A DNA stretch of 64,000 bases, from sequence record KC295538; one strand, written 5' to 3'. A model generated the notes under the pieces. It worked only from the letters and a program-made list of their open reading frames with translations. It was not told the DNA's origin and made no database searches. Of the stretch, positions 9,386-24,680 are shown one piece after another. The position numbers and the translations under genes were made by a program. The stretch's first letter is position 1; every line of letters starts with the position of its first letter. The stretch comes from Escherichia phage PBECO4.

Positions 9386-9400
9386 TTTAGTTTATCCTAT

Positions 9401-9425: not shown

Positions 9426-9447
9426 GTGTTGTTAGTACTGCAAGTTA

Positions 9448-10352: not shown

Positions 10353-10535
10353 TTATTTTTTGGAAAGTTTACGCATTAATTCTACGCTTTCTTGTGAACG
10401 TTTTGCTACCTGGCAATCTGTATGGGTAGTAAACATTTTTGTATAGTCTGACGGTTTGCCACCGAACCGAGCGGCACGCTCACGGGCACTTGGAACTAAT
10501 ACGATTTCTTTCTTACAGATAGTGCACTTAGCCAT
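10353..10535 (-). CDS. small Cys-containing protein (possible zinc ribbon)
   Basis: CTICKK...HTDC in 60 aa; own promoter+hairpin. Confidence 0.5.
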   Translation of the reverse strand: MAKCTICKKEIVLVPSARERAARFGGKPSDYTKMFTTHTDCQVAKRSQESVELMRKLSKK

Positions 10536-10620
10536 TTTTATTTCTCTCTCTTTGTTAGGAGGGGAACCATTCCCCCCTTGATGTAAACTATTATACAGTA
10601 CTAAGATACTTTGTCAATAC
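10536..10620 (-). promoter_or_regulatory. sigma70-like promoter + 5' UTR hairpin
   Basis: Near-identical copy of unit 10263..10352. Confidence 0.6.
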
Positions 10621-10896
10621 TTAATTATTGTAAATGCAGTGAATAGTGATAAAGTTTTTACGACCGTAAACCTGCAAATCAATATCAATGTAGTGCTTAT
10701 CAAGTACATCCTCGACGCTTAACGCGGTGTCGTGAATATCTTCGTAGAATTGAGGATCTACAATCTTGCTTAAGTCATCCGGCGTTAACTTATCGTTAAG
10801 CCATTGAACCGCCTGGATATCTGCTTCACGTTTCCAGTCTTCCAGGTTAGTAGTCAGTACTTGCTCGATTTCGTTAGCTGTCAGTAGAATCCGCAT
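10621..10896 (-). CDS. hypothetical protein
   Basis: Track ORF. Confidence 0.55.
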   Translation of the reverse strand: MRILLTANEIEQVLTTNLEDWKREADIQAVQWLNDKLTPDDLSKIVDPQFYEDIHDTALSVEDVLDKHYIDIDLQVYGRKNFITIHCIYNN

Positions 10897-11093
10897 TTTT
10901 ATGTTTCCTTATCAGTAGTTGATGTAAGTATTATACTCGTTTACTTTCTATTGTCAATCTTTTTTTATCAGGGGAGTTTTTCGTATGTCTTACTCCTGGA
11001 CTACTTAACGGGGTTACTTGTTTTGTTCCCCGTCCTGATGTAAAACATTATACTTGATTCTAAGTACAATGCAAGTACTTTTTAAAAATAGTT

Positions 11094-11258
11094 TTACTTA
11101 CTCATATTAACAGGCTTGAACGGTGGCAATGTAAGATCATGCGGGGTTAAACTATCATGCTTTGCCCACATACCGGAATCCCTACGGAATAATACCTTAT
11201 TGTTTTTTATACGATAAAAGTTACCATTATCAGTGTTTTTGTACCATATCATTTTCAT
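11094..11258 (-). CDS. hypothetical small protein (54 aa)
   Basis: Own translation MKMIWYKNTDNGNF..; GGAG SD; promoter motif upstream. Confidence 0.4.
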   Translation of the reverse strand: MKMIWYKNTDNGNFYRIKNNKVLFRRDSGMWAKHDSLTPHDLTLPPFKPVNMSK

Positions 11259-11398
11259 TTACTCCTGGTTATGTCGTTATTAAACATTATACGGGGTTAT
11301 AGATAGTTTTCAAGTATATTTCAGTACTAGCCACCAGCATATAATAGATACATTTATGCACCCTATGGGCTGATTTTTTTCTATGCGTATATAATAGC

Positions 11399-11430
11399 AA
11401 AGGGACTGACCGGAGTCAATCCCTTTTTTA
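11399..11430. terminator. TTGACT-containing hairpin element (copy 3)
   Basis: agggactgaccggagtcaatccctttttt. Confidence 0.5.
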
Positions 11431-11437
11431 ATTCTTT

Positions 11438-11587
11438 TTAAACTTCTTTCGGGTTGCGATATGTGATAGCGTTCGGGTACATTTGTTTAATGTTATTCCA
11501 TGCCTGGTTAACATTGTAACCACTTGAGCGAATCAGTTGGTTACTACCGACACCTTGAAACACTACTTCGAATAAGAATTCTTTCAT
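11438..11587 (-). CDS. hypothetical small protein (49 aa)
   Basis: Own translation MKEFLFEVVFQG..; ATGA overlap with upstream ORF. Confidence 0.4.
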   Translation of the reverse strand: MKEFLFEVVFQGVGSNQLIRSSGYNVNQAWNNIKQMYPNAITYRNPKEV

Positions 11588-11757
11588 GCTTTCACCTCGC
11601 TATCTGCTTTACCTTTACGCCAGGACATTACTAATTGTTCGCGTTGCCATAAATCGAGTGATACAAAAAGTTTTGCGGTATCACTTTTAGGATACTCGCC
11701 AGTAGTACCTAACCGATAAAACAGATCTTTCAGTACTGATAATTCTACTTGAATCAT
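11584..11757 (-). CDS. hypothetical small protein (57 aa)
   Basis: Own translation MIQVELSVLKDLFYRLG..; translationally coupled. Confidence 0.4.
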   Translation of the reverse strand: MIQVELSVLKDLFYRLGTTGEYPKSDTAKLFVSLDLWQREQLVMSWRKGKADSEVKA

Positions 11758-11863
11758 TTTATTACTCCTGATTGATTTAATACTTCTACTATTGCATGAA
11801 TGATCATAAGTACAGCTAAAACAATAATCATCGGATTCATTTGCATAAGCTGTACTCCTTCTA

Positions 11864-12076
11864 TTAATCTTTCAGCCAATGATCTTGAATGAATTTTTCA
11901 CAGAATCCCTGTTTCATGGATTCCAACAGGCGTTCGCGGTGAGCGTTTGCGAATTGCTCAGTACTATGCGTTACGCCAGGCTGATAACGTGATACCCCAT
12001 CCGGTCCGATGTATTGTACATCCCACGGTTTTTCGTTAGTATCAGACCATTTACGAACGATTAGTTGACCTTGCAT
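11864..12076 (-). CDS. hypothetical protein
   Basis: Track ORF; promoter+hairpin 12077..12159. Confidence 0.6.
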   Translation of the reverse strand: MQGQLIVRKWSDTNEKPWDVQYIGPDGVSRYQPGVTHSTEQFANAHRERLLESMKQGFCEKFIQDHWLKD

Positions 12077-12159
12077 TTTTCTTTCCTCTCAGTGGGGAGA
12101 ATCATTTCTCCCCTTCATGTAACTTATTATACAGTACTAGATTATCTTGTCAATAGTTT
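12077..12159 (-). promoter_or_regulatory. sigma70-like promoter + 5' UTR hairpin
   Basis: ggggagaatcatttctcccc hairpin; tgtcaa/attata. Confidence 0.6.
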
Positions 12160-12483
12160 TTATTCACCTTGTTTGAATTTAGTTTTCTCCATTGATTCCA
12201 TGATTGCAACCAATACGCCGTGGATCTCGCTTAACGCGGAATCACTGAAAGCATTAATGAATAGTCGATCATTCTCGCGAATATTTTTAATGTACTTTTC
12301 AGCAGTAGTTGCGAATTCATTCAACGGTAGATCAAATGCTTTATCCCATGATGGATGGCGTAATTGTAACAGTACTGGATTATCACGATCACCAGGGGAA
12401 AACGTACCAGTGATGAAACATACGCCCGGAATACTTTCGAACTGGCAACGGACTTCCTTTGTGATAGTAGTATGAATGTACAT
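12160..12483 (-). CDS. hypothetical protein
   Basis: Track ORF. Confidence 0.55.
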   Translation of the reverse strand: MYIHTTITKEVRCQFESIPGVCFITGTFSPGDRDNPVLLQLRHPSWDKAFDLPLNEFATTAEKYIKNIRENDRLFINAFSDSALSEIHGVLVAIMESMEKTKFKQGE

Positions 12484-12510
12484 TTATTGTTATCCTCTAT
12501 TAAATTAATA

Positions 12511-12705
12511 TTACAGTTTATGAATCAATTCTTTATCTAAGCGATAGCGTACATTATTAATAGTAACGGCATTGTTTTTAATGCTACGCTGTACAGGTCC
12601 ACCAGCAATAACAAATGTTGCTTTATTACCCCGAACAATGATAGCACTTCCAGGATTACCGAAATCATCTTGTACTAAAATACTTGATAAGTTTTCCATT
12701 TTCAT
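12511..12705 (-). CDS. hypothetical protein
   Basis: Track ORF; promoter+hairpin upstream. Confidence 0.55.
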   Translation of the reverse strand: MKMENLSSILVQDDFGNPGSAIIVRGNKATFVIAGGPVQRSIKNNAVTINNVRYRLDKELIHKL

Positions 12706-12780
12706 TTCCTCTTAGTAGGGGAAGATGTTTCCCCTTGATGTAAGTACTATAACACTACTGGATAGTACTGTCAATACTTT
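12706..12780 (-). promoter_or_regulatory. promoter + 5' UTR hairpin
   Basis: hairpin aggggaagatgtttcccct; tgtcaa -35. Confidence 0.5.
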
Positions 12781-13038
12781 TTATCTCATAGATCTATGCC
12801 AACAATTACGCGGGGGACGTTTAAAAGTACTATCATGATCCTCCTGGCAAGTTATGCAGTACTTACATCCCTTAACGGCCTGGCGTCGTTTCTCAGGGAT
12901 TATATCGCCGCAGTCGAGGCAATGTATCAGTGATTCTATTTGTGCGTTAATTTGCTTTCTAGCGTGGTTAACGGCGGCCTGAATCACTGCGTTAATCTCG
13001 TCTTGTTCGGCCCCATCTTTCGCGAATCCTACAGCCAT
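12781..13038 (-). CDS. TraR/DksA-family C4 zinc finger protein
   Basis: C-x2-C-G-x2-IP-x2-RR-x5-C-x2-C spacing (HCLDCGDIIPEKRRQAVKGCKYCITCQ) matches the DksA/TraR zinc finger. Confidence 0.6.
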   Translation of the reverse strand: MAVGFAKDGAEQDEINAVIQAAVNHARKQINAQIESLIHCLDCGDIIPEKRRQAVKGCKYCITCQEDHDSTFKRPPRNCWHRSMR

Positions 13039-13369
13039 TATTTTAACCTCATTATAAAAATACTATAGTACTGTAATGCGACAATAATATTACTTGTTCT
13101 TACTTTTTCCAATCCACATGATACCACATATTCATCCCCATATGTGCGGAACGATACACCATGAAAATTTTTATACACTTGCACTACTAATCATAACCTT
13201 TCGTCTAACCAACTGCATAGAATTATACTACTTTACGCAAATTGATCAAGTATTGATCAGATCATTTTTTGATCAATATTATACAGTTACATTTGTGCAC
13301 CCTATGGGTTAGTGACGTTCTCGTCTTGATGTAAGTATTATGCCAGTACTTGATGATATTGTCAATAGT

Positions 13370-13567
13370 TTATTTTAATTTTTTTCTGTCATTGATTAAT
13401 GCTTTCAGTACTATACTAATGATTTGCAATGATTCATCAATGACTATAAAATTATTCTCTTTCATTAGATGATAGTTACCATTGATTGTATATTCTAAGG
13501 AGTACTGTTTACGTTTAATTTTTGATAATGTTTCTATTTGTTTTTGTACTGATTTCATGCTAATCAT
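13370..13567 (-). CDS. hypothetical protein
   Basis: Track ORF. Confidence 0.5.
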   Translation of the reverse strand: MISMKSVQKQIETLSKIKRKQYSLEYTINGNYHLMKENNFIVIDESLQIISIVLKALINDRKKLK

Positions 13568-13672
13568 TGTTAAACGTCCTGTAACGCATTCTAACGAGAT
13601 AAACGGTTTAGTACTGGCATTGTATAGGGTAATGAATTAAAGCCCACCAGCGTTAACCAGTGGGCTATAATC

Positions 13673-13816
13673 TTACATCTTGCGGATAATCTTAACAGTA
13701 TCTTTCACCGATTTACCGTCTTGCTGGCATTGCTCGATCATTGCGTATTGTTCTGCTGTAAGATCCTCGCCAGTTTTTGCCAGTACTGCGTCGATGAATG
13801 AATCCAGTGCGATCAT
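13673..13816 (-). CDS. hypothetical small protein (47 aa)
   Basis: Own translation MIALDSFIDAVLAKTGEDL..; promoter-like region upstream. Confidence 0.4.
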   Translation of the reverse strand: MIALDSFIDAVLAKTGEDLTAEQYAMIEQCQQDGKSVKDTVKIIRKM

Positions 13817-13915
13817 TTTGTTTCTCTCTTAGGTTAAGTTAACTACTGTTTATAAAACTTATTATACAGTACTATCAAACGTTGTCAATATCTTTAATAG
13901 TACTGGTAATATATT

Positions 13916-14095
13916 TTAGCGGTAATCGTCGTATGCTTTATTCACCTGGCGAATGTAACTTTCAAAGGCTTCGTCTACCGTTTCATACTCCCGAACATAA
14001 TCACCATAGGAAACTACATACATACCTTTTTGATCTTCAAACGACATGATGATAGAATCCAGGCCGATGATTTCAGTTTTTGCGATGATAGCCAT
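13916..14095 (-). CDS. hypothetical protein
   Basis: Track ORF trimmed to ATG 14095 (MAIIAKTE..). Confidence 0.55.
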   Translation of the reverse strand: MAIIAKTEIIGLDSIIMSFEDQKGMYVVSYGDYVREYETVDEAFESYIRQVNKAYDDYR

Positions 14096-14178
14096 TTTTA
14101 ATTCCTTAGTAGTGTAGTTGATAAAAGTTATTATGCCAGTACTATCAATCAGTGTCAATAGTACTGTGATAATATTTT

Positions 14179-14391
14179 TTAGTTAATAATAGTCAGTGTA
14201 AAATTGTAATCCCCTGCCTGGTATAGTACTTTATCGCCGAACGTTCCAACACGTTTCATATTGCAATAGATACCCATAACACTTTTTACATCTTTGATAT
14301 TCCGAACGCCAGTAATATCCTTGTTTAAATGATCGTGATCAGAAAATAAAACTTGTTTTGCATTTTTCAGTACAGTGCAGATATTAGCCAT
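14179..14391 (-). CDS. hypothetical protein
   Basis: Track ORF; promoter+hairpin 14392..14485. Confidence 0.6.
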   Translation of the reverse strand: MANICTVLKNAKQVLFSDHDHLNKDITGVRNIKDVKSVMGIYCNMKRVGTFGDKVLYQAGDYNFTLTIIN

Positions 14392-14485
14392 TTTGTTTTC
14401 TCTCTGTTAGTGGGGAGAATCATTTCTCCCCTTCATGTAACTTATTATACAGTACTATAATCTATTGTCAAACTATTTTTTTATA
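14392..14485 (-). promoter_or_regulatory. sigma70-like promoter + 5' UTR hairpin
   Basis: ggggagaatcatttctcccc hairpin identical to that at 12077..12159. Confidence 0.6.
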
Positions 14486-14827
14486 TTATTCGAAATCTTC
14501 TGGACCGGACTGATAATCATCTTCACCGTATGCACTTTCTAACTTCTCGCCAGTGTGATCATCAGTTAGTGAATCATCCTCATAATTCACGTCTACGCCT
14601 ACAATGTAAAACTGGCTATCGTCTGGATCATTGAAATTAATTTTCTGAATGTTTACAATAACTGTATTGATGCCCAGGACACAGCCATCAGCCGTTACAA
14701 AGTACTGATAGTTTTCACAACCGCCTGAATTGAAACCGTAATTGATTTCGGCCCGACCATCATTTAAACGCAGTGCCTGGGCGATGATTTCGTTTTCAAA
14801 GTTAGATTGAGCAATTGAGATAGTCAT
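14486..14827 (-). CDS. hypothetical acidic protein
   Basis: Track ORF; D/E-rich C-terminus. Confidence 0.6.
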   Translation of the reverse strand: MTISIAQSNFENEIIAQALRLNDGRAEINYGFNSGGCENYQYFVTADGCVLGINTVIVNIQKINFNDPDDSQFYIVGVDVNYEDDSLTDDHTGEKLESAYGEDDYQSGPEDFE

Positions 14828-15019
14828 GATTCGTTTCCTTATTACTAGGGGAAACCGTTTCCCCTTTCGATGTAAAACATTATACGCTTATTGAGATAGT
14901 TTGCAAGTACTTTTTATCAAATACTTTAAAATAGTTTTCAGTACTCAAACATTATACAATAGATACACTCCTGCACCCTGTGGGCTAGTGAGCTATCTCT
15001 CAATGATTATATAATAACA

Positions 15020-15049
15020 AAATGGCTGACCGAAGTCAACCACTTTTTT
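15020..15049. terminator. TTGACT-containing hairpin element (copy 4, variant)
   Basis: aatggctgaccgaagtcaaccacttttttc. Confidence 0.45.
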
Positions 15050-15052
15050 CAT

Positions 15053-15187
15053 TTATTTTTTAGCTTTAAGTACTGCGGCCTTTCGTGTCATGCCTTGCTT
15101 GATGTATTCCTGTACTTTCGCTTTACGTGCTTTAGCTTTATCTGCTTTAGTTTTAGGAGTACTGTAAACTATACCGTTAGGATTCAT
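15053..15187 (-). CDS. hypothetical small basic protein (44 aa)
   Basis: Own translation MNPNGIVYSTPKTKADKAKARKAK.. Confidence 0.35.
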   Translation of the reverse strand: MNPNGIVYSTPKTKADKAKARKAKVQEYIKQGMTRKAAVLKAKK

Positions 15188-15273
15188 TTAAATCACCATA
15201 AAGAATAGATAGGTTACTAACAACGCCGCGATCAATGCACCGACCAGGGCCGAACTGTAATAAGCTAAGGATC

Positions 15274-15426
15274 TCATTTTTTAGCCTGAAAATAATGTTT
15301 AATTTGTGCGGCGGTCAGTGCACAATTACGCAGGAAGTTTTCTGTATAACTGCGGCGAGTATTAAAAGAGAATTGACCTTTACCGTTACCGATAGTTACA
15401 TCCATCCGAGCGTTGTATTGTTTCAT
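15274..15426 (-). CDS. hypothetical small protein
   Basis: Track ORF 15274..15456 trimmed to MKQYNARMDV.. Confidence 0.5.
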   Translation of the reverse strand: MKQYNARMDVTIGNGKGQFSFNTRRSYTENFLRNCALTAAQIKHYFQAKK

Positions 15427-15507
15427 TTTGTATCTCCTGTTATCGGGGAGAATCATTTCTCCCCTTCATGTAAAACATTATACAGTACTAAAAACTAATT
15501 GCAAGTA
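15427..15507 (-). promoter_or_regulatory. sigma70-like promoter (TTGCAA -35) + 5' UTR hairpin
   Basis: ggggagaatcatttctcccc; ttgcaagtatt on +. Confidence 0.6.
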
Positions 15508-15750
15508 TTATTTTAAACTTTGTGCGACTAATTTCGCACGGTCAATCATATACTGCCATTTTTGGATCTCTTCTGGCAGAAAACGATATTCACCAATAAC
15601 AATAGTGATACACTTTTCAGCTTGGTCAATGTATGTAGTATCAATCTCGACTTGAACGGGTACACGTTCGCCGTATTCAGTCCCTGGGATAATGCAATCA
15701 TTATCATAAGTTACAGTAGTAGTAGTGTCTTTGATTAAAATTGTTTCCAT
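15508..15750 (-). CDS. hypothetical protein
   Basis: Track ORF. Confidence 0.6.
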   Translation of the reverse strand: METILIKDTTTTVTYDNDCIIPGTEYGERVPVQVEIDTTYIDQAEKCITIVIGEYRFLPEEIQKWQYMIDRAKLVAQSLK

Positions 15751-15819
15751 TATACTTTCCTCGTTAGGTGTAAGGGGAACGTTTTCCCCTTCATGTAAAA
15801 CATTATACAGTACTGAAAA
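15751..15819 (-). promoter_or_regulatory. sigma70-like promoter + 5' UTR hairpin
   Basis: aggggaacgttttcccct hairpin. Confidence 0.55.
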
Positions 15820-16029
15820 CTAATTGCAAGTACTTTCCGAAAGTAAATGCTCATACGCTGCATTAACTACATTTTCAATAACCGACTGTACAGAAAGATC
15901 CCCCACGTCCTGGCTATAGTAGAAATTGCTTACAGTGGTGTCATCGTATGCAAATACTTTACCAGGTACTGCATCAATCACATACATATTAACCTTTAAG
16001 ATGTCGATCTTATCCTGTACAGTAAGCAT
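15820..16029 (-). CDS. hypothetical protein
   Basis: Track ORF. Confidence 0.55.
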   Translation of the reverse strand: MLTVQDKIDILKVNMYVIDAVPGKVFAYDDTTVSNFYYSQDVGDLSVQSVIENVVNAAYEHLLSESTCN

Positions 16030-16034
16030 ATTAA

Positions 16035-16307
16035 TTAACCTTTTAAGTACTGGCTTAAGTAGTCTTTTTGATCTTCGGTGATTGCAGTCATCTTCCCTAG
16101 TACTGGATTGATGATATAATCCCCTGTAACGTCCTGTAACGCATTCTCAGGCGGTTTAACGGCTGGGGTAGCCATAGCCATTGCCTGGACTTGTTCGACG
16201 CTGTAACGCTCATAAAGGCGGCATTCTTCCGGTGTTAACATAGCATCAGTACGCTTCATCGGTTTAATGATGCTTTCGATCTCATTCAGTACTTGATTAA
16301 CGTTCAT
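16035..16307 (-). CDS. hypothetical protein
   Basis: Track ORF. Confidence 0.55.
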   Translation of the reverse strand: MNVNQVLNEIESIIKPMKRTDAMLTPEECRLYERYSVEQVQAMAMATPAVKPPENALQDVTGDYIINPVLGKMTAITEDQKDYLSQYLKG

Positions 16308-16358
16308 GGTATAATCCCCAATATAAGCGGCCTAAATCGACCGCTAACGATGTTTTGA

Positions 16359-16628
16359 TTAATAGGTGTAAGGTTGACGCTCAAACAATGATTGTACGCT
16401 GTACGCCCCGCTAATGGGCTTCGCTGGCAAATCAATTTTATATTGTTCACGCTTAAAGATAATAAAACGGCAATTGTTTTTAACATCAAAATTGATTGAA
16501 CGTTCCAGGAGTTTTCCATCGTGCACAAATACAAGATAACCGCTTGGTACTTGTTTTGTAGAACTGGTTGCAACCATAGACCGACGAACATGTGTACCTG
16601 CATCGATTAAAGTACTGATATTTTTCAT
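16359..16628 (-). CDS. hypothetical protein
   Basis: Track ORF; preferred over overlapping 16304..16603 frame. Confidence 0.5.
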   Translation of the reverse strand: MKNISTLIDAGTHVRRSMVATSSTKQVPSGYLVFVHDGKLLERSINFDVKNNCRFIIFKREQYKIDLPAKPISGAYSVQSLFERQPYTY

Positions 16629-16708
16629 TTTACTATCCTCTTAAGTTGATTTAATTTCTTTCCCCTATGCAGACACTGTATCAAAGTATCTGCATAAAGT
16701 AAAGCTAA

Positions 16709-17032
16709 TTAAAGATCTTTTTTACGTTTTACATCCTGTACAGTACAATGCAACGGGATAGACAAATCATTACACAAACGAGTAAGGGAGGTTTCAACAG
16801 TATCAAGCCCGTCTACTGATTCCTTTAAGAGATCAAACGCCGTTTGTTGATATGCATCTTCATAGCCATAAGTAAATGATTCAACCGCCAGATCATTCAA
16901 ACCGTTATCCAGTTCAACGCTTACATGACAAGAATGATAAGTATTGCCATATGAATCAGTCCAACGTTTACCGTCAACATTGATTGCATGGATTGCAGCC
17001 AGGGAAACGGTATTGATGATAGTTTTAGCCAT
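16709..17032 (-). CDS. hypothetical protein, paralog of 9939..10262
   Basis: Shared RWTD.YGNTYHSCHVS, FTYGY, DVKRKKDL. Confidence 0.6.
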   Translation of the reverse strand: MAKTIINTVSLAAIHAINVDGKRWTDSYGNTYHSCHVSVELDNGLNDLAVESFTYGYEDAYQQTAFDLLKESVDGLDTVETSLTRLCNDLSIPLHCTVQDVKRKKDL

Positions 17033-17123
17033 TTTAGTATTCCTTAAATTAATATGTGTCGTCTTGATAAAATCTATTATGCCAGTACTATCAAACTATG
17101 TCAATAGTACTGTGATAATATTT

Positions 17124-17336
17124 TTACTTACTTTCTTTCGCTGCTTTATATGTTGCCACTGCCATAACCACATCAGCACGAACAAAGTTTTTAACCGTGT
17201 CACTGTAATAATTGATCGCATCATCTATATCTGCGAACGTCCGATACATACCGCACCAAGATACTTTATAACCTTCTTTCACTTCTGCCAGTTTAACGAT
17301 AGTCTTGTTAACTTTGATTTTAGTAATGATAGCCAT
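17124..17336 (-). CDS. hypothetical protein
   Basis: Track ORF trimmed to ATG 17336 (MAIITKIKV..). Confidence 0.55.
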   Translation of the reverse strand: MAIITKIKVNKTIVKLAEVKEGYKVSWCGMYRTFADIDDAINYYSDTVKNFVRADVVMAVATYKAAKESK

Positions 17337-17423
17337 TTTAGTTTCCTCATTATCAGGGAGAACCATTTCTCCCCTTGATGTAATGTATTATACTTTATTC
17401 GATTTACTTTGCAAGTACTTTTT
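17337..17423 (-). promoter_or_regulatory. sigma70-like promoter + 5' UTR hairpin
   Basis: gggagaaccatttctcccc hairpin. Confidence 0.55.
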
Positions 17424-17651
17424 TTAATTTAATTCATCCAGGCAAAGGATACGCTCAACGCCCAAATCAGTTAAACTAATCGACGGCACTTGATAGGTTT
17501 CAATGTATGCTACACTTGCCCACTGACCGAACTCATTAACGGCCCAGGTATTCATTGCATTTTGCAATTCCGCACCTGCCTTGTTAGTAATGACTGCAAC
17601 TACTTGTTCGTTGCCAGTAGTACCAGATACGCGAGTAATGATAATAGCCAT
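17424..17651 (-). CDS. hypothetical protein
   Basis: Track ORF trimmed to ATG 17651 (MAIIITRVSG..). Confidence 0.55.
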   Translation of the reverse strand: MAIIITRVSGTTGNEQVVAVITNKAGAELQNAMNTWAVNEFGQWASVAYIETYQVPSISLTDLGVERILCLDELN

Positions 17652-17888
17652 TGTTTTGATTCCTTTGATTTGGAAGGAGAACCGTTTCCCCCTCTCGATG
17701 TAAAACATTATACGCTAATCTCTTAATCGTGCAAGTACTTTTTATTACTTTTTGCAAAATACTTTAAACGCTCTCAATCGCATTCTAACGACCTTAACGC
17801 CACCAGCTAGGGCGATGTATCAGATAATCAGTTTAATGCGTTAGAATCGATTCTAGGCGGTGCTGGTGGACTGGAATACTACAGACAC

Positions 17889-17915
17889 AAAAAAGCCCAC
17901 TGTTTAAGGTGGGCT
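17889..17915 (-). terminator. rho-independent terminator (minus strand)
   Basis: agcccactgtttaaggtgggct hairpin with A-run on + (U-run on minus), 3' of gene 17937..18419. Confidence 0.6.
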
Positions 17916-17936
17916 AGTGATTCAGTACTTTAATTG

Positions 17937-18419
17937 TTATGCTTCAACTTTGCGATGAGCTTCGATCCATTCCTCGCGAGTCATACCGCTTTCTTTGATA
18001 GCGTCCAGTACTACCGCAATGCAGTTACCGCGTACAGGAATCATATGTTCTTCCCCGTTATCAAGTACTACAGTAACACGTTCTTGAATCCATTTTTTAG
18101 GTTTAGATTCTGGCTTATCTTCACCATACTTAACCGCCAGGGCTTTATGTGCCATTTCTACAACTACTTCCAGATCCAATCCAGCCACCGCCGCCTGGAT
18201 ACTTTCGATTGTTGCTTGCAGTTCGGCTTCACGGGCTTTTTTCTGTTCTTCCAGTTCTGCTACCTTTTTGGCTTGCAGTTCTTTAGCTTCACTGTACGCA
18301 ATGTTAAAATTGTTGCGTACTGCTTTCATGGTATCGTTATCCAGGTCAGCCAACAATTCAGCAGCAATAACAGTATCGTTTGAAATCAGTGCTTTCAGGA
18401 ATGATTTTACATTAGCCAT
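17937..18419 (-). CDS. hypothetical protein (predicted coiled-coil segment)
   Basis: Track ORF trimmed to MANVKSF..; central AKELQAKKVAELEEQKKAREAELQ heptad-like stretch. Confidence 0.6.
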   Translation of the reverse strand: MANVKSFLKALISNDTVIAAELLADLDNDTMKAVRNNFNIAYSEAKELQAKKVAELEEQKKAREAELQATIESIQAAVAGLDLEVVVEMAHKALAVKYGEDKPESKPKKWIQERVTVVLDNGEEHMIPVRGNCIAVVLDAIKESGMTREEWIEAHRKVEA

Positions 18420-18623
18420 TTTATAAATCCTCAATTAAAGTTTAGTTTACGTTTATTAGTGTATCAAAGTTTTATCGACGTGTCCAGTTTTTCGTTCGAC
18501 TTACTGGCGGTCTACTTAGTGCTCCCCGTCTTGATGTAATACATTCTACGCCTTTTTGTGGTAATGTCAACTACTATTTTAAAACTATTTTTAAAGTATG
18601 CAGTACTACGATAATACAAAAAC

Positions 18624-18650
18624 AAAAAAGCCCACTGTTTAAGGTGGGCT
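18624..18650 (-). terminator. rho-independent terminator (minus strand)
   Basis: Second copy of agcccactgtttaaggtgggct with A-run. Confidence 0.6.
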
Positions 18651-18667
18651 AGTGATTCAGTACTATA

Positions 18668-18967
18668 TTATAAACAGTTAATTACTCCGGTGTGCGTTAC
18701 TTTCTCAGTATCCATAACCGTGACCGATCCACGCTTAGTACTTACATCGTAATAAATTGTCGTGCTACCTTTTTCGTCTTCTTCATGGAACGGGCCGCTT
18801 TTAAATGCTTCTGGCTGGATCTCTAAATCCTTTAAAACAATCTCGCCAGTACTTTCATCTGTCATCGCAACAGTGCACTGAATGAATTTTTCACTACTTA
18901 CATCTAACGACGCATTAACAGCGAAAGAGGAAACAGATAAAGCCAGGGCGATGATTGCAATTTTCAT
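18668..18967 (-). CDS. small secreted protein (signal peptide)
   Basis: MKIAIIALALSVSSFAVNA N-terminus. Confidence 0.6.
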   Translation of the reverse strand: MKIAIIALALSVSSFAVNASLDVSSEKFIQCTVAMTDESTGEIVLKDLEIQPEAFKSGPFHEEDEKGSTTIYYDVSTKRGSVTVMDTEKVTHTGVINCL

Positions 18968-19051
18968 TTGATTATCCTTAGTTACCAGGGGGAACCGCTC
19001 CCCCGTGCGATGTAAAATATTGTACAGTACTAAAAACTAATTGCAAGTACT
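18968..19051 (-). promoter_or_regulatory. sigma70-like promoter + 5' UTR hairpin
   Basis: agggggaaccgctccccct hairpin. Confidence 0.55.
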
Positions 19052-19288
19052 TTATGATTTTTTATAAAACATTTCGGCAGTAATATTTTTACCCGTTGGT
19101 TGTACTTTATCCAGAATTTTTTGATGCCCTGGCCGTCCAAATGAATATGATCCGTAAACCGTAAACCAGTAGTTACCCTCAGTGTTTACATGTACAGCAC
19201 AATAGGGAACGCCCCGCGATTCATCACCAATAAAGTGTGATACCGTTCCCGTTACATTAGCAGACGTTGATTTGATTTGTTCAAGCAT
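19052..19288 (-). CDS. hypothetical protein
   Basis: Track ORF. Confidence 0.55.
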   Translation of the reverse strand: MLEQIKSTSANVTGTVSHFIGDESRGVPYCAVHVNTEGNYWFTVYGSYSFGRPGHQKILDKVQPTGKNITAEMFYKKS

Positions 19289-19397
19289 TTTCTTATTCCT
19301 TAGTTACCAGGGGGAACCGCTCCCCCTATGCAAAACATTATACGCGTTTAAAAACTAATAGCAAGTATTTTAATAAAAAGTATTTGAAAAATAATTG

Positions 19398-19426
19398 TTG
19401 ACAACTGCATCCAGTACTGGCATAAT
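19398..19426 (+). promoter_or_regulatory. + strand sigma70-like promoter (TTGACA-N17-CATAAT) driving a short noncoding transcript
   Basis: ttgaca 19398..19403, cataat 19421..19426; downstream box ctaacccaccgggtgc; no + strand ORF. Confidence 0.45.
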
Positions 19427-19500
19427 TACTACATCAAGACGAAACAGTCACTAACCCACCGGGTGCCGAGATCCGTCTATTAAATGATTCAGTACTTAAC

Positions 19501-19524
19501 AATAAAGGGGATCAATCGATCCCC
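19501..19524 (-). terminator. hairpin terminator (minus strand; may also stop the + strand transcript)
   Basis: ggggatcaatcgatcccc with flanking A/T runs immediately 3' of gene 19531..19752. Confidence 0.5.
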
Positions 19525-19530
19525 TATGTA

Positions 19531-19752
19531 TTACTTAGTAAGGTATAAACAGAAGTCACCTTTATTTGCTACGCCGCCAGTGTAACGCGATGAATAGTTA
19601 GAAACGTCCTGGACTTCTGCTATTACCAGTGTATCATCATTCAATTCGTCGCAGAAGCAAACGGCTGGATCTTTTACGCCGATCTTGTCGGCATGTTCCC
19701 GCATAGATTTAACCAGTGCTTCCAGTTGAGAAAGAGTAGTGATATTAGCCAT
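19531..19752 (-). CDS. hypothetical protein
   Basis: Track ORF trimmed to ATG 19752 (MANITTLSQ..). Confidence 0.55.
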   Translation of the reverse strand: MANITTLSQLEALVKSMREHADKIGVKDPAVCFCDELNDDTLVIAEVQDVSNYSSRYTGGVANKGDFCLYLTK

Positions 19753-19836
19753 TGTATTTTCCTCATTACCAGGGAGAACCATTTCTCCCCTCTATGTAAA
19801 CTATTATACAGTACTGAAAACTAATTGCAAGTACTT
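19753..19836 (-). promoter_or_regulatory. sigma70-like promoter + 5' UTR hairpin
   Basis: gggagaaccatttctcccc hairpin. Confidence 0.55.
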
Positions 19837-20025
19837 TTAATTAAATTCCATAAAATCATTCTCAACGTGCACAACAATTTGATTGTTTTTAAAGTCCGCA
19901 GCGAACTCGATGCAATCATAAACCGCTTTTTGTGTTACAATGCTATGAGTACCAATCGGATTAATAGGGGATTGAATTGTTTCAATCTCGTTCCCTTGCT
20001 CATTAACAATTAAAATATTAAACAT
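19837..20025 (-). CDS. hypothetical protein
   Basis: Track ORF. Confidence 0.5.
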   Translation of the reverse strand: MFNILIVNEQGNEIETIQSPINPIGTHSIVTQKAVYDCIEFAADFKNNQIVVHVENDFMEFN

Positions 20026-20081
20026 CGCTGTTACTCCTGGGTAGTGTTAACTCGATATAAAGTATTATACGCCTTTATTGC

Positions 20082-20324
20082 TTAGTGTCCAGTACTTTTT
20101 AAAACATATTCATAAACACTACGCACATCATTGATCATCGCCTGGCGGTTAGCAGGTAACGCACCAGGATCGCCACTATCCCAGGCATTGATAAAACTCC
20201 CCAAATCATGAAAGATTTTATTCTGTAAGCCGATTAACTGCAATTCTTTTTCTTCAAGCTCTTTGATACGGTCAATTAAAAGACTCATTAGATAATCCTC
20301 AGTACTTAATTGTAAGATCCGCAA
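20082..20324 (-). CDS. hypothetical protein
   Basis: Track ORF. Confidence 0.5.
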   Translation of the reverse strand: MRILQLSTEDYLMSLLIDRIKELEEKELQLIGLQNKIFHDLGSFINAWDSGDPGALPANRQAMINDVRSVYEYVLKSTGH

Positions 20325-20632
20325 CGGTTACAATAGTGCCCGTCTTCCTCGTCATCGTCAACGAATTGACCGACGAAATTATCTACTTTCTCTTTGAGAT
20401 TCTGATAATTGTTTTCAACTTCCTTTAGACGTTCCTGGTAGTATTCCAGGGCTTGCACATACGCCGCCTCAGCCGTTTTCGCTCTTAAGGCTAAATTCAT
20501 GCCACGCGTTTCATCGTACATCCAAAAGCCATCGGTGCACTCACTGATTGACAATGATTTGGTTAACACTTTATAGTCAATTACTTTGCTCATTAGATAA
20601 TCCTCAGTAAAGGCGGGAACCACACCCGCCAT
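20306..20632 (-). CDS. hypothetical protein
   Basis: Track ORF; C-terminal CNRC. Confidence 0.5.
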   Translation of the reverse strand: MAGVVPAFTEDYLMSKVIDYKVLTKSLSISECTDGFWMYDETRGMNLALRAKTAEAAYVQALEYYQERLKEVENNYQNLKEKVDNFVGQFVDDDEEDGHYCNRCGSYN

Positions 20633-20649
20633 TGATTCAGTACTGAATG

Positions 20650-20889
20650 TTACATTCCAACCATTGCAGCACGGATCGCCGTAGTGCTATACTTGAATCC
20701 GTCCGGTGTTGTAGTAGTACCGTTGGCTTTTAATCTGCGGTACATACATTGGGCCGCAATATCTTTAGTTTTACATTGTGCGATGCAACTTTGAGCAAGC
20801 CGATATAATGACTCACCGTTATTAATCCACAATGAAACATTCCAATGAGTTTTGTTTTTGTGCCCGTTGTAAGTTTTAGTAGTAGCCAT
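20650..20889 (-). CDS. hypothetical protein, paralog of 22698..22937
   Basis: Shared GHKNKTHWNVSLWINN..LYRLAQ and C-terminal TPDGFKYSTTAIRAAMVGM. Confidence 0.6.
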   Translation of the reverse strand: MATTKTYNGHKNKTHWNVSLWINNGESLYRLAQSCIAQCKTKDIAAQCMYRRLKANGTTTTPDGFKYSTTAIRAAMVGM

Positions 20890-20985
20890 TTTTAAATCCT
20901 CGTTTAATTGAGCGGGAGAACCATTCCCCCGCCTCGATATAAAGTATTATACGCTTTTAAACTTAGTTTGCAAGTACTTTTTAAA
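20890..20985 (-). promoter_or_regulatory. sigma70-like promoter + 5' UTR hairpin
   Basis: gcgggagaaccattcccccgc hairpin. Confidence 0.55.
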
Positions 20986-21597
20986 TTAATATGCGATTGA
21001 TTCTACTACGTCATCAATAACATTGAATTGATACTCGTTACCCTCGATCAGTGCCGTGATGTTCTCAGTAGTGAATTGATCCTCATATGCATTCTCTAAA
21101 TCACGGTACAACTTGCGGGACAATTCACGAATAGTATCAGTGAGTAGTTCCTCAAGCTCATTAACTAACGTTTCTTGTTTTGCGGTTAAATCAGTGTAAG
21201 CCGATTCAATGTACCCGCTTACAGTATTCTCATGCGAGTAGTGGGAGTGCGAACGCTTTACACTCATCGCCAAATCATCTTCATTCAGCAAGTGACGGAT
21301 TGAGCGATACTTAGTTAATGCTCTTACCTTGCGTAAAAACTTCACTGCGTCAACGTGGTCAGTACTGATTGATGCACCGTCACCCTGGGACCAAAAACCA
21401 CTGAATTGTATTTCAGCTTCATTAATGCCATATTCCGGTAGTACTGTTTCTTTATAGTATTCAATTTCACTTTCAGAAAAATAATTGTCGTTTGAGTTTT
21501 TTTCACGTTCCCGAACCAGTTCGATAGCTGACGTTTGTTGTTCTGCGTTCAATTCAGAAAAATCCATAACGAAAGTAGTAGTAGTGATAGTTTTCAT
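20986..21597 (-). CDS. hypothetical acidic protein (203 aa)
   Basis: Track ORF. Confidence 0.6.
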   Translation of the reverse strand: MKTITTTTFVMDFSELNAEQQTSAIELVREREKNSNDNYFSESEIEYYKETVLPEYGINEAEIQFSGFWSQGDGASISTDHVDAVKFLRKVRALTKYRSIRHLLNEDDLAMSVKRSHSHYSHENTVSGYIESAYTDLTAKQETLVNELEELLTDTIRELSRKLYRDLENAYEDQFTTENITALIEGNEYQFNVIDDVVESIAY

Positions 21598-21819
21598 TTT
21601 GTAACCCTCATTCAGTAGTTGATGTAAGTATTATACGCTTTTAAAAACATTTGTCAAACTATTTTATCAGGGGAGTTTTTCGTGTGCCTTACTCCTGGGC
21701 TACTTAACGGGAAGTTACTTATTTCGTTCCCCGTCCTGATGTAAAACATTATACGCCTTTAAACATAGTTTGCAAGTACTTTTTAAAAATAGTTTTCAGT
21801 ACTGAATATTAAAAAAGTA

Positions 21820-21848
21820 TTGACAGCATTATCAAGTACTGGCATAAT
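21820..21848 (+). promoter_or_regulatory. + strand sigma70-like promoter (TTGACA-N17-CATAAT) driving a short noncoding transcript
   Basis: ttgaca 21820..21825, cataat 21843..21848; downstream ctaacccaccgggtgc box then atagatacactcccgcaccctatgggct box. Confidence 0.45.
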
Positions 21849-22022
21849 ATACCACATGACAACAGCTAACCCACCGGGTGCACAATTGTAACTATACTAA
21901 ACTAATTTTTCTATAGATACACTCCCGCACCCTATGGGCTACGGCTTATCTGCCAATGAATACATTATGCCAGTACTGACAAAATAAGTCAATACCGGCA
22001 ATTGTAAAGATTTGTAAACTAC

Positions 22023-22253
22023 TTATACTGCAATCGCGTCCAGGCTATAATAATAATAAGTGCCGTATTGGTGTACTTTATTACCTTTTATTTCAGTACT
22101 GAATGAATCCGAACGATTTGCATATGATGTTAATTTAAAGTACTTTGATTTGCTGATACGTTGCCATACACCACAGATCCGCTGTAAGTAAGTAGTTTTA
22201 TTCGTGGTAGTATCTTTTACGGTTTTAACTTCAGTCATATACATATTAGTCAT
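22023..22253 (-). CDS. hypothetical protein
   Basis: Track ORF. Confidence 0.55.
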   Translation of the reverse strand: MTNMYMTEVKTVKDTTTNKTTYLQRICGVWQRISKSKYFKLTSYANRSDSFSTEIKGNKVHQYGTYYYYSLDAIAV

Positions 22254-22340
22254 TTTTATTACTCCAGGTTATAGGCGGGAAGAGTTCCCGCTCTCGATGT
22301 AAAACATTATACGCCTTTAAACATAGTTTGCAAGTACTTT
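22254..22340 (-). promoter_or_regulatory. sigma70-like promoter + 5' UTR hairpin
   Basis: gcgggaagagttcccgc hairpin. Confidence 0.55.
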
Positions 22341-22607
22341 TTATTCAAGTACTGCAATCTTTTTAGTACGGTACACGGTCACGCGGTTGCCCTTTCGGTC
22401 GAGCTTTATTTCTACCACTCGACGCGATACACTATCGGGACTTTTTAAGGCCGCTAACCAGTACTGTAATGATCTGGCTGTACTACGCTTTACAATGGCC
22501 CAACGTTTACCACGTTCCGATTGTACGCCCATATCTTTAAACGTTGCCCCGTCCTGGCGTGCGGCGATCCGAGCTTGTTCACGCGTCGCAAAATACTTAA
22601 TATTCAT
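22341..22607 (-). CDS. hypothetical protein, paralog of 9448..9843
   Basis: Trimmed to ATG 22607 (MNIKYFATREQARIAARQDGATFKDMG..). Confidence 0.6.
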   Translation of the reverse strand: MNIKYFATREQARIAARQDGATFKDMGVQSERGKRWAIVKRSTARSLQYWLAALKSPDSVSRRVVEIKLDRKGNRVTVYRTKKIAVLE

Positions 22608-22697
22608 GCTGTTGCCCTTATCGTTGGTGTATGAATAAAACACTATTATAAAGTACTATCGCAAAAAATGATAGTACTTTAAATAAATTCTATTCTA

Positions 22698-22937
22698 TTA
22701 CATTCCAACCATCGCCGCACGGATCGCAGTAGTGCTATACTTAAAGCCGTCCGGTGTTTTATCTTGTCCAGTCTGTTCTAAAAATAGCATCATATGACGG
22801 GCCGCATCATTACGATTAGTATTGGCGGCAATAAAGTCCTGGGCCAACCGATACAATCCCTCATCGTTATTAATCCAAAGGCTTACATTCCAATGAGTTT
22901 TGTTTTTGTGACCTAAGAACATTTTTGATTTAGCCAT
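22698..22937 (-). CDS. hypothetical protein, paralog of 20650..20889
   Basis: Trimmed to ATG 22937 (MAKSKMFLGHKNKTHWN..). Confidence 0.6.
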   Translation of the reverse strand: MAKSKMFLGHKNKTHWNVSLWINNDEGLYRLAQDFIAANTNRNDAARHMMLFLEQTGQDKTPDGFKYSTTAIRAAMVGM

Positions 22938-23019
22938 TTTTTTAATCCTCTTATATAGTGGGGAACTATTCCCCACCTGATGTAAAGTATTATACGCTTT
23001 TAAATTTAGTTTGCAAGTA
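22938..23019 (-). promoter_or_regulatory. sigma70-like promoter + 5' UTR hairpin
   Basis: gtggggaactattccccac hairpin. Confidence 0.55.
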
Positions 23020-23253
23020 CTATTTTTTCAGTACTGGTAAACCTTTGATCTCACCTGGCTGTACTTCCTCAAAGGCGACCGCCATCATACGGCTATCATC
23101 TTCCTTACATTCTTCCATCGCATCACAAAAATGATTAATAACGTCCGGTGCAACGTCAACCACATCAAACAAGCCAACCTCAGTGCAACGGCTTAAAGCG
23201 TTTAATAGGTCAGTCAGTGCAACGGATTGAGAAACAGTTAAAATAGTACTCAT
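23020..23253 (-). CDS. hypothetical acidic protein
   Basis: Track ORF. Confidence 0.55.
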   Translation of the reverse strand: MSTILTVSQSVALTDLLNALSRCTEVGLFDVVDVAPDVINHFCDAMEECKEDDSRMMAVAFEEVQPGEIKGLPVLKK

Positions 23254-23347
23254 ACAATTAATCTCTTAATTATAGTGGGGAACTATTCCCCACCTGATGT
23301 AAAACATTATACGCTTTTAAACTTAGTTTGCAAGTACTTTATTAAAC
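23254..23347 (-). promoter_or_regulatory. sigma70-like promoter + 5' UTR hairpin
   Basis: Same hairpin as 22938..23019. Confidence 0.55.
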
Positions 23348-23710
23348 TTATTTGTAAATTTTGCCACTGTCAGCCCATACCAGGAAACGAGGCATATTAT
23401 CCCATGCATCTTGTTTTAAATTTAAACCGTGCAATTCCTCAGTAGTTGCCATCCCTGGTACTGGCTTACTACACACCGCGAAATTTTCGCCCATATACTG
23501 ATAAACCATCGTCAAATCATTTGAGATCATCTTATGGATCATCGCATCAAGCATCACGGTAGCGGCGTATTGTTCACGCTTAAGCGGCAGCATTTTAATC
23601 AGTTCGCGGTATGCGTCAATGTGAGTTTTAACCGTTGCCGCCGGAAGATCTTTCATCTCGTCGCGGAAGTTAACCAGGTTAGCAATAATTTTGGTGATTT
23701 GAGTTGCCAT
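23348..23710 (-). CDS. hypothetical protein
   Basis: Track ORF trimmed to ATG 23710 (MATQITKIIA..). Confidence 0.6.
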   Translation of the reverse strand: MATQITKIIANLVNFRDEMKDLPAATVKTHIDAYRELIKMLPLKREQYAATVMLDAMIHKMISNDLTMVYQYMGENFAVCSKPVPGMATTEELHGLNLKQDAWDNMPRFLVWADSGKIYK

Positions 23711-23800
23711 CGTTTTAATCTCTCTTAAAGTGTAGCGGGAACACTTCCCGCTCTCGATGTAAAACATTATACGCTTTTATCAGTACGGTGCAAGTACTTT
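23711..23800 (-). promoter_or_regulatory. sigma70-like promoter + 5' UTR hairpin (last unit before noncoding hub)
   Basis: gcgggaacacttcccgc hairpin. Confidence 0.55.
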
Positions 23801-23825
23801 CTACAAATACTTTTAAAATAGTTTT

Positions 23826-23917
23826 CTTTCTATATAGGAGTACTATTATTCAGTACTGAATCAATCCAGGGGAACTATCTTTCTATATAGGAGTACTATT
23901 ATTCAGTACTGAATCAA
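23826..23917. repeat. 39-bp direct repeat x2
   Basis: ctttctatataggagtactattattcagtactgaatcaa at 23826..23864 and 23879..23917. Confidence 0.7.
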
Positions 23918-24069
23918 CCAAATCACTACTACACCCCATAAAACGGCCTCAGACGCATTCTAACGCATTAATACACCTAAGCTATACATTTGCACCACTC
24001 CCAACAATCCAGGGCGTTACGGGCCGTTTAAACGCGTTAAATTATTTTCAATTATTTTGTTTTTAGGTA

Positions 24070-24097
24070 TTGACTTGATCCTGAAAAAGCGTATAAT
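24070..24097 (+). promoter_or_regulatory. + strand promoter (TTGACT-N16-TATAAT)
   Basis: ttgact 24070..24075, tataat 24092..24097; downstream gggtgcgg ... ccgcaccc long-range inverted repeat. Confidence 0.45.
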
Positions 24098-24284
24098 TAC
24101 TACATAGACGCGAGAAAGCGGAAACCCCAGAGGGTGCGGAATTACGCCCAAAATTCAAGATATAAAAAAAGGATACACTCCCGCACCCTAGCAGGTAAAC
24201 GCACTTTCTCAGTACTGAATTATAGTACCATAGTCCGGCCCAGGATGGCAAGCAAATTAATTAAAACTTTTTTCATCCAGGGTA

Positions 24285-24312
24285 TTGCTTTATTTTTCCA
24301 GTACTGTATAAT
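24285..24312 (+). promoter_or_regulatory. + strand promoter with TTGCTTTA box upstream of TATAAT (resembles a T4 MotA-box middle promoter)
   Basis: tattgctttat 24283..24293, tataat 24307..24312; downstream cccaccgggtgc box. Confidence 0.35.
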
Positions 24313-24533
24313 AGTTCCATCAAGTCGAGAAAGACTCAAGCCCACCGGGTGCATAGTTACGCCCAAAATTCAGTACTGAAAAAATTTTTAAAAATATCCG
24401 TCCAGGCCGTTGACATTGCCCCCAGTTTATAAGATAATGATTCCAGATTCAGAAAAATCTAACTCCAGATACTGCGGGGAAACTATCCCCACGCGGTAGG
24501 GGAACTATTGGAAAAAACAAAATAAAATTTTGA

Positions 24534-24680
24534 TTTAGCCGTCTATACTTCCAGACGTGTAACCATCTAGCCGTTTAGCCGTCCAAACGTCTAGCCATCC
24601 AGCCATCCAGAAATCTAGCCGTTTAGCCGTCTAGATGGATAGCCATCTTTACTTCCAGACTTCTGGAGGGCTAGACATAT
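24534..24680. repeat. iteron-like cluster of ~8 short direct repeats (TAGCCGT/TAGCCAT) flanked by tacttccagac repeats
   Basis: ctagccgtttagccgtc, ctagccatccagccatccag, ctagccgtttagccgtctag; tacttccagac at ~24546 and ~24651. Confidence 0.6.

Follow-up and report, generated by a model that had tools for sequence, protein, structure and literature searches.

Background

The octamer 5'-GCTGGTGG-3', the Chi site of E. coli, is recognised by enteric RecBCD (PMC12315714; also established knowledge), and a Chi on the top strand is active for RecBCD that enters from the right (PMC12315714). Phage P1 carries 50 Chi sites, needs RecA and RecBCD, and circularises by recombination between its terminal direct repeats (Zheng et al. 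2025, PMC12315714); in LLS the Chi sites are terminally clustered and oriented, and the Chi-rich phages of this paradigm have no recombination module (PMC12315714). For phage T5, the untranslated Repeat Region 3 was proposed to contain the injection stop signal (iss) (Davison 2020, bioRxiv 10.1101/866236). Here, a spacer is described that lies in 64,000 nucleotides of DNA from Escherichia phage PBECO4 (record KC295538, one strand, 5' to 3'; this whole stretch is called the window, and position 1 is its first letter). The spacer is untranslated DNA that separates two early-gene cassettes inside a direct terminal repeat (DTR) of ~21 kb, and the phage is, judged by its sequence, an Asteriusvirus jumbo phage of the 121Q/PBECO4/G17 (121Q-like) group. 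Within the terminal repeat the spacer forms a composite intergenic module, real and non-random and without an RNA hairpin, in which Chi sites on both strands stand beside a short motif, here called M. The reading that is preferred, at a probability of about 0.6, is that the terminal repeats would be processed by RecBCD at Chi, as in P1 and LLS, and that M would be a probable protein-binding element next to these sites.

The original prediction for this DNA, made by a model from the letters alone, had described an inverted repeat region with a recurring motif that lies between a promoter and a terminator, is not coding, and could form a long RNA hairpin or be a protein-binding site. The order on the minus strand is terminator (17915..17894), spacer and promoter (17734..17707), and the spacer is free of coding sequence, as had been said. 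The flagged motif was found as TCGCATTCTAACG at 17778-17790, not at ~17793, and its first base is T, not A; its inverse (CGTTAGAATCG, 17839-17849) and the palindrome (TAGAATCGATTCTA, 17842-17855) are both present. Further copies also exist, as exact ACGCATTCTAACG at 13584-13596 and 23953-23965 instead of ~13594 and ~23950. Far from lacking other copies or conservation, the motif was found to be confined to the DTR, conserved, and common to T5-like phages when its distribution was checked. A second inverted repeat had been missed; its arms, CCACCAGC (17800-17807) and GCTGGTGG (17862-17869), interleave with those of the first.

Chi sites in the terminal repeat

This second inverted repeat is the exact Chi octamer on both strands, with the two copies facing outward. 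Chi orientation was judged from verified termini together with the activity rule of PMC12315714. Position 25442 of the window aligns to position 1 of fEgEco12 and of vB_Ec-M-J, and ~4467 aligns to the end of their DTR, in reverse orientation; the DTR of fEgEco12 measures 20,993 bp and was verified by PhageTerm and restriction digests (PMC13070987), and that of vB_Ec-M-J is annotated at 1-21,525 (record OQ718158). Position 25442 was therefore taken as the left physical end. The repeat and its Chi sites are as follows.

~4467..25442, minus strand: one copy of the DTR (~21 kb), an array of early-gene cassettes, placed by alignment to fEgEco12 and vB_Ec-M-J
17862..17869, plus strand: Chi, active for RecBCD going from high to low window coordinates, with entry at 25442 (left physical end), 7.6 kb away
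17800..17807, minus strand (gene sense): Chi, active for RecBCD going from low to high window coordinates, with entry at the right physical end
24846..24865, no strand given: Chi pair in a terminal palindrome, CCACCAGC-TTGT-GCTGGTGG, 0.58 kb inside the left physical end
5828..13651, minus strand: six further sense-strand Chi sites (exact octamer), starting at 5828, 7628, 9032, 11331, 12599 and 13644

Eleven exact Chi sites were counted in the window against 0.65 expected, a number reached by none of 100 shuffled sequences, and 10 of the 11 lie inside the DTR. Among DTR octamers with at least six copies Chi was the most over-represented (10 observed, 0.36 expected under a third-order Markov model) and outranked the words of the 27-copy promoter family found there; the best of the 168 words of the same composition after Chi had four copies in the DTR, and the 24 one-mismatch neighbours of Chi had three in total. 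The sequences that flank the DTR sites share nothing. The sites are found in coding DNA (two reading frames), in the loop of a terminator, upstream of promoters and in a palindrome of the leader. Relatives showed a similar concentration: 11 of the 28 Chi sites of a complete 351,992-bp genome fall in its 21.3-kb DTR, at 10 times the density found elsewhere (binomial P = 3e-7), fEgEco12 has 12 in 1-20,993 and none in 20,994-50,000, and in TH47 the DTR carries 10, with no Chi in the flanking sequence that was retrieved.

Sense and antisense Chi sites of the DTR stand at 8:2 in the window, 10:2 in fEgEco12, 9:2 in vB_Ec-M-J and ECO103, and 8:2 in TH47, and a bias of 8-12 to 2 held across six genomes, a distant genus included. 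The sense sites face the right physical end, the first of them 1.36 kb inside, and exactly two antisense sites serve the left end, one in the terminal palindrome at 0.58 kb and the other, the plus-strand Chi of the spacer, at 7.6 kb. In each of the back-to-back pairs, an incoming RecBCD would meet first the member that is recognisable from its side.

All 10 DTR octamers were unchanged in vB_Ec-M-J, fEgEco12, ECO103 and TH47 wherever these could be aligned through a site, and the adjacent bases varied, which points to selection on the octamer itself; G17 departs from this invariance. The minus-strand Chi of the spacer was likewise invariant in nine of nine aligned relatives and in EJP2, with variable neighbouring bases, and the terminal Chi palindrome (24846-24865) was kept in all relatives examined. 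The four central bases of this palindrome read TTGT in some genomes and the reverse complement, ACAA, in others (fEgEco12 578-597 and ECO103 321643-321662 were compared); this means that the entire 20-mer was inverted, the outcome expected of palindrome-mediated inversion.

More distant phages were also inspected. Klebsiella phage fENko-Kae01, at ~29% average nucleotide identity to fEgEco12 (PMC13070987), has 12 sense and 2 antisense Chi sites in its DTR (1-19,736, PhageTerm) and 2 in the next 25 kb, with a terminal Chi palindrome at 484-503 and the second antisense site at 7.0 kb; in Yersinia phage fHe-Yen9-04 six sense sites lie within the first 13 kb, and the 13 kb after that are free of Chi. 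Conservation of the layout thus extends past the genus. As a separate observation, the Chi-bearing terminator hairpin AGCCCACTGGTTAACGCTGGTGGGCT of the window (13634-13659) is conserved in fENko-Kae01 at ~19340-19365, and four more Chi sites of that phage lie inside promoter spacers (3711, 9192, 16840 and 18721). Among the non-DTR Chi sites of ECO103, three are spaced by ~255 nt (342196, 342451 and 342709) and two by 21 nt (171126 and 171147).

Compared with LLS and P1, the likeness lies in an exact host Chi that is over-represented, placed near a genome end and oriented for RecBCD that enters there. The window phage differs in being a virulent jumbo myovirus of ~350 kb with fixed direct terminal repeats of ~21 kb, in having its Chi sites almost wholly confined to the repeat, in the service of both ends by two outward-facing pairs and, unlike the class without a Rec module, in belonging to a genus with its own annotated RecA-like recombinase. 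With the Chi sites of the E. coli chromosome the DTR shares the octamer and a strand bias that matches the direction in which RecBCD arrives, whereas its density is ~1 per 2 kb, compared with 1 per 4.6 kb in K-12 (PMC12315714), at a G+C content of only 36-39%, and many of its sites are intergenic. The literature search returned no paper that joins Chi with jumbo phages. We regard the Chi pair as a new instance of the known kind of phage Chi cluster and infer its mechanism from these precedents.

The spacer pair is part of a DTR-confined array of 10-12 Chi sites, 8-10 of them in gene sense and 2 antisense. Under the proposed mechanism, after entry of the linear genome, RecBCD would load on the free ends and degrade inward until a correctly oriented Chi switched it to its recombinogenic mode and RecA was loaded on the 3' tail. 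The RecA-coated tail could then pair with the other copy of the DTR, because it would lie wholly inside the terminal repeat, and the genome would end up as a circle or concatemer rather than being destroyed, as was described for the terminal repeats of P1.

Several points weigh against this proposal. The plus-strand Chi of the spacer, kept in seven of nine relatives, is mutated in 121Q and G17, and this member of the pair is therefore dispensable; only two Chi sites face the left end; and M copy B (see below) is mutated in TH47 and CMSTMSU. Outside the DTR, ECO103 has 17 Chi sites against ~3.4 (expectation extrapolated from shuffles), an excess of ~5-fold, and some general bias may therefore contribute. 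Purines at positions 4-7 of the 3' flank were reported to enhance Chi (PMC5041463); counted over the flanks in the window they amount to 21 of 40, which is unremarkable and uninformative. A RecA-like recombinase is annotated in Asteriusvirus (Sharanji paper, PMC11895373), so that the trait of P1- and LLS-type phages of having no recombination module of their own may fail in this genus, and a RecBCD inhibitor or end-protecting protein, if encoded, would make Chi redundant. The part given to RecBCD in these phages is read from sequence, and the papers on fEgEco12 (PMC13070987) and Sharanji (PMC11895373) make no mention of Chi.

If RecBCD and Chi do act in this way, jumbo phages of ~350 kb, several of which are under development for therapy, depend on host RecBCD, Chi and RecA to rescue and join their terminal repeats at entry. 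This would explain the great length of the repeat, would predict sensitivity to recB, recC and recA backgrounds and to RecBCD-linked defences, and would add virulent jumbo phages to temperate P1 and the lambdoid phages as users of the Chi-rich strategy.

Motif M in the window and in T5-like phages

Motif M has the consensus CGTTAGAATGCG-N4-AG-N2-CGTTT and is present in three minus-strand (sense) copies and one diverged inverted copy, all in the DTR. It is built from three CG-initiated decamers (CGTTnA type) in helical phase (10 nt), and the whole element spans ~25-44 nt.

13572..13596, minus strand: copy A, directly upstream of the ATG (13567) of a gene of 65 amino acids and ~35 nt past a Chi-carrying terminator
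17766..17790, minus strand: copy B, CGTTAGAATGCGATTGAGAGCGTTT, the sequence flagged by the original prediction (motif comparison)
17839..17869, plus strand: copy C, inverted and diverged, TTTAATG-CGTTAGAAT-CGATTCTAGG-CGGTGCTGGTGG, the third block replaced by Chi (motif comparison)
23941..23965, minus strand: copy D, in the untranslated DTR leader, ~1.5 kb from the left physical end (motif comparison)

The 12-mer CGTTAGAATGCG occurs three times on the minus strand of the window against 0.00 in 100 shuffles, and the 9-mer CGTTAGAAT four times against 0.70, with none of 100 shuffles reaching four. The TTAATGCGTTAGAAT stretch of copy C is identical to copy D at every position, and the rest of copy C resembles the T5-like variant GCGATCTAGGACG. 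Copy B accompanies the promoter that follows it, even in EJP2, which has a different upstream gene, and the 352-kb relative has exactly three copies of M, each of them on the sense strand of the DTR.

A scan of IMG/VR found M in 121Q, in T5 itself and in ~20 T5-like contigs. M of T5 is at 9350-9374; in this group of phages it lies ~55 nt past the terminator of the last first-step-transfer open reading frame (ORF), which is the start of the untranslated Repeat Region 3. Copy D gave a blastn match of 44 nt at 84% to T5-like phages. The T5-like set was retrieved via flanking sequence and was thus unbiased towards M; in its 18 distinct variants M was nearly invariant and the internal spacers varied. 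T5 also has a degenerate inverted second copy near IRD. This cross-family motif is a new observation, and a literature search for the motif string returned nothing relevant.

The locus resembles T5 Repeat Region 3 in having an M core in non-coding DNA of a long DTR with pre-early or early genes, on the sense strand just past a terminator and with an inverted second copy. In T5, however, a LexA-box-like palindrome, paired DnaA boxes and IRD'/IRC' come after M, and the locus in the window has none of these; T5 has a single M and a degenerate inverted copy 3 kb away, where the copies of Asteriusvirus are three direct ones and one that is inverted, diverged and only 48 nt distant; and no homologous gene flanks M in the two groups. 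Two-step injection, which depends on A1 and A2, is a trait of T5 and is not established for jumbo phages. Two side observations concern T5 itself: ACTGTATAAATATACAGT, which adjoins M at ~9404-9426, fits the LexA-box pattern CTGT-N8-ACAG, and the Davison preprint (10.1101/866236) nowhere uses the word LexA; its DTR carries two Chi sites, both on the sense strand (~8127 and ~8689).

Several roles for M were considered and set aside. Regulation of the gene that follows copy A was discarded, as homologues of that gene in other jumbo genera are without M. A sigma-70 promoter at TAGAAT failed for want of an acceptable -35 element, judged by eye at every copy, with no site at these positions among the scan sites listed, and a reading of the inverted pair as a miniature inverted-repeat transposable element failed on its unequal arms, no target-site duplication being seen. 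Conserved RNA structure was not found for M (18 sequences from two phage families, -3.35 kcal/mol, no covariation). M is most likely a putative recognition sequence for a protein, which is our best guess. Of the two functions that the original prediction had offered, the protein-binding site is thus the better half: the RecBCD enzyme of the host recognises the sequence of one inverted repeat, and the flagged motif behaves as a motif of sequence and not of structure.

A wider proposal, which we hold to be rather unlikely as a whole, makes M a putative recognition site of a host (or shared phage) factor that enterobacterial long-DTR phages exploit within the first minutes of infection, and makes the spacer a bidirectional module with each M coupled to an outward Chi. 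Such a factor might anchor, pause or shield the entering repeat. If this held, end protection or recombination by RecBCD would share its early step with the candidate injection stop signal of T5. The cross-family motif is in any case a short and defined candidate for dissection of the untranslated T5 region that has been tied to two-step injection.

Alternative explanations

It is possible, if tentative, that the functional core is the divergent pair of M copies, acting as an operator-like or anchoring site for a host (or phage) DNA-binding protein, with Chi being incidental. By analogy with the near-iss region of T5, such a protein could conceivably control the adjacent early promoter or an early step of DNA entry, a suggestion to be held just as loosely. 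The confinement of M to the DTR, always on the sense strand and downstream of terminators, speaks for this explanation, as do its presence in two unrelated long-DTR phage groups with the same hosts, its near invariance in the 18 T5-like variants between variable spacers, the three CG-initiated decamers in 10-nt phase, the inverted second copy found in T5 too, and the lack of RNA structure in M. It has to contend with the search of bacterial genomes, in which 596 Gb gave one chance-level match to M and by which a host chromosomal site was ruled out, and with the absence of M from the other jumbo genera checked. The DTR ORFs of T5 had no tblastn match in an Asteriusvirus genome and those of the window had no homologue in T5-like DTR loci; a shared phage-encoded M binder was rejected because no protein homology was found in either direction between the T5 DTR ORFs and the Asteriusvirus genome. 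The DnaA-box pairs and LexA-like palindrome of T5 are also missing here: no DnaA-box consensus lies near any copy of M (9 in the window, 13.5 expected) and no LexA-type palindrome lies near the window copies. In addition, TH47 and CMSTMSU carry mutations in copy B, and G17 has a truncated copy C. A central role of M is compatible with the Chi explanation. Very unlikely, in turn, is a coding role, in which M would be a mini-ORF, ATG CGN NNN AGR NCG TTT, for a leader or regulatory peptide M-R-x-R-x-F (MRSRTF, MRFRTF, MRLRAF and MRYRAF in T5-like phages; MRYRTFNND, MRLRAFKVFCKK and MRLRPFYGV in the window). Codons 2 and 4 and the stop (TAG/TAA) do vary in a way that looks synonymous, but a degenerate middle decamer fits this variation equally well; there is no Shine-Dalgarno sequence, the ATG is AAG in one T5-like lineage and in the inverted copy of T5 itself, neither the length nor the C-terminus of the peptide is conserved in jumbo phages, and the sites lie downstream of terminators.

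Folding of the inverted repeats into a long RNA hairpin (or a DNA cruciform), as a regulatory structure or small RNA, is highly improbable, and the RNA-hairpin part of the original prediction is already largely refuted. It could draw on a perfect 9-bp inverted repeat (ATTCTAACG/CGTTAGAAT), an 8-bp one and the 14-nt palindrome, and the minimum free energy structure does employ the 9-bp repeat. The folding energy was nevertheless no better than that of shuffled sequence (z-scores: plus strand -1.02, minus strand -0.23), and the two inverted-repeat pairs interleave, so that no single hairpin holds both. Across nine relatives the three candidate helices showed no compensatory change, every substitution breaking a pair: all nine variant cells of the two inverted-repeat helices break pairs, and the innermost pair of the palindrome is broken, without compensation, in four of eight relatives. 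In G17, 12 nt of one repeat arm are deleted, and the other arm is mutated in TH47 and CMSTMSU. The site also comes after a strong terminator and before the promoter of the following cassette; Rfam gave nothing at gathering score, with sub-gathering matches in a permissive local scan only over the terminator, and a scan for tRNA and tmRNA found none. The sequence of EJP2 that aligns to the palindrome, GCCTGTAGAATCAATTCTACGGGC followed by T6, is a complete terminator, and because of this alignment with a complete terminator stem the palindrome TAGAATCGATTCTA is probably the relic of a decayed one. Compared with the intrinsic terminators at boundaries of phage early cassettes, it shares this alignment with the EJP2 stem but has neither the G+C stem extension nor the T-run, and a complete terminator stands only ~40 nt upstream. 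The decayed stem invites the view that the whole spacer is a non-functional relic of cassette shuffling, in which a decayed terminator and duplicated promoter-upstream DNA were left together and the repeats are leftovers of recombination. Neighbouring cassettes were indeed gained and lost (a 50-amino-acid gene like 121Q_278 is found in 121Q, G17 and CMSTMSU and not in the window), and G17 tolerates its 12-nt deletion. A mere relic is still improbable, given the minus-strand Chi that is invariant in every relative and matched in position in a distant genus, Chi and M statistics far beyond chance, and the conservation of M across phage families. Processing by RecBCD at Chi, beside a probable binding element M, remains the preferred reading.

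Setting of the spacer

The nearest record to the window is Salmonella phage SD-1_S14 (99.4%), and E. coli and Salmonella are on record as hosts of the relatives. The spacer region was kept in 36 Asteriusvirus records at 88-100% identity. Between ~5 and 25 kb of the window every gene is on the minus strand, in an array of small cassettes that each consist of a sigma-70-type promoter, a conserved hairpin in the 5' untranslated region (5'-UTR), a short ORF and a terminator. The features around the spacer are listed in the direction of transcription.

17937..18419, minus strand: upstream early gene (ORF) of 160 amino acids, match to phrog_27871 (E = 3.5e-92), hypothetical in relatives
17894..17915, minus strand: intrinsic terminator AGCCCACCTTAAACAGTGGGCT followed by T6, from a terminator scan; a terminator is annotated at the same site in G17
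17842..17855, no strand given: palindrome TAGAATCGATTCTA, not conserved as a hairpin
17707..17734, minus strand: sigma-70-type early promoter (TTGCAC, 16 nt, TATAAT) of the 27-copy family, followed by the 5'-UTR hairpin of that family (repeat families and sequence)
17424..17651, minus strand: downstream early gene (ORF) of 75 amino acids, match to phrog_13850 (E = 3.5e-42)

An extra gene of 50 amino acids (121Q_278 type) separates this promoter from the 75-amino-acid gene in 121Q, G17, CMSTMSU and fEgEco12; it is missing from the window (17651-17705) and from TH47, a gain or loss of a cassette that adjoins the spacer. A plus-strand ORF of 30 amino acids at 17752-17844, annotated in SD-1_S14, was judged not credible, as it starts with TTG, is antisense to all its neighbours and is unannotated in most relatives.

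Other features of the window

Twenty-seven early promoters with the elements AAAGTACTTGCA/TTGACA, 16 nt and TATAATGTTTTACATC were located on the minus strand between 5344 and 25090, and behind most of them a conserved G+C hairpin (GGGGAGAAnnnTTCTCCCC) follows directly, at the transcript's 5' end. The DTR leader (23750-25442) comprises 1.7 kb of untranslated DNA, with degenerate repeats of 8-nt period (CGTCTAGCC / ATCCAGCC) at 24540-24691, a duplicated unit of ~38 nt at ~23827-23917, and a plus-strand promoter (24070-24097) that faces a minus-strand terminator (24189..24170). The window holds 266 copies of the hexamer AGTACT, where ~22 would be expected from its base composition, and 56 of the palindrome CAGTACTG against ~0.7; copies of both are spread over the window, are densest at 20-28 kb, and often lie in promoter spacers and intergenic DNA (for example 24886-24920 and 23827-23917), and the pair could be a binding site or a promoter element. 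On the plus strand, seven to eight tandem units of ~1.2 kb at 29800-39720 form an array of paralogous genes, each unit opening with a conserved promoter, a ribosome-binding site and the N-terminus ATGTTACCTTTTGGAAGAATG. A terminator family of 12 copies, AAAGGGCTGACCGAAGTCAACCCTTTT, extends from 5923 to 59150 and is common to the DTR and the region beyond 46 kb.

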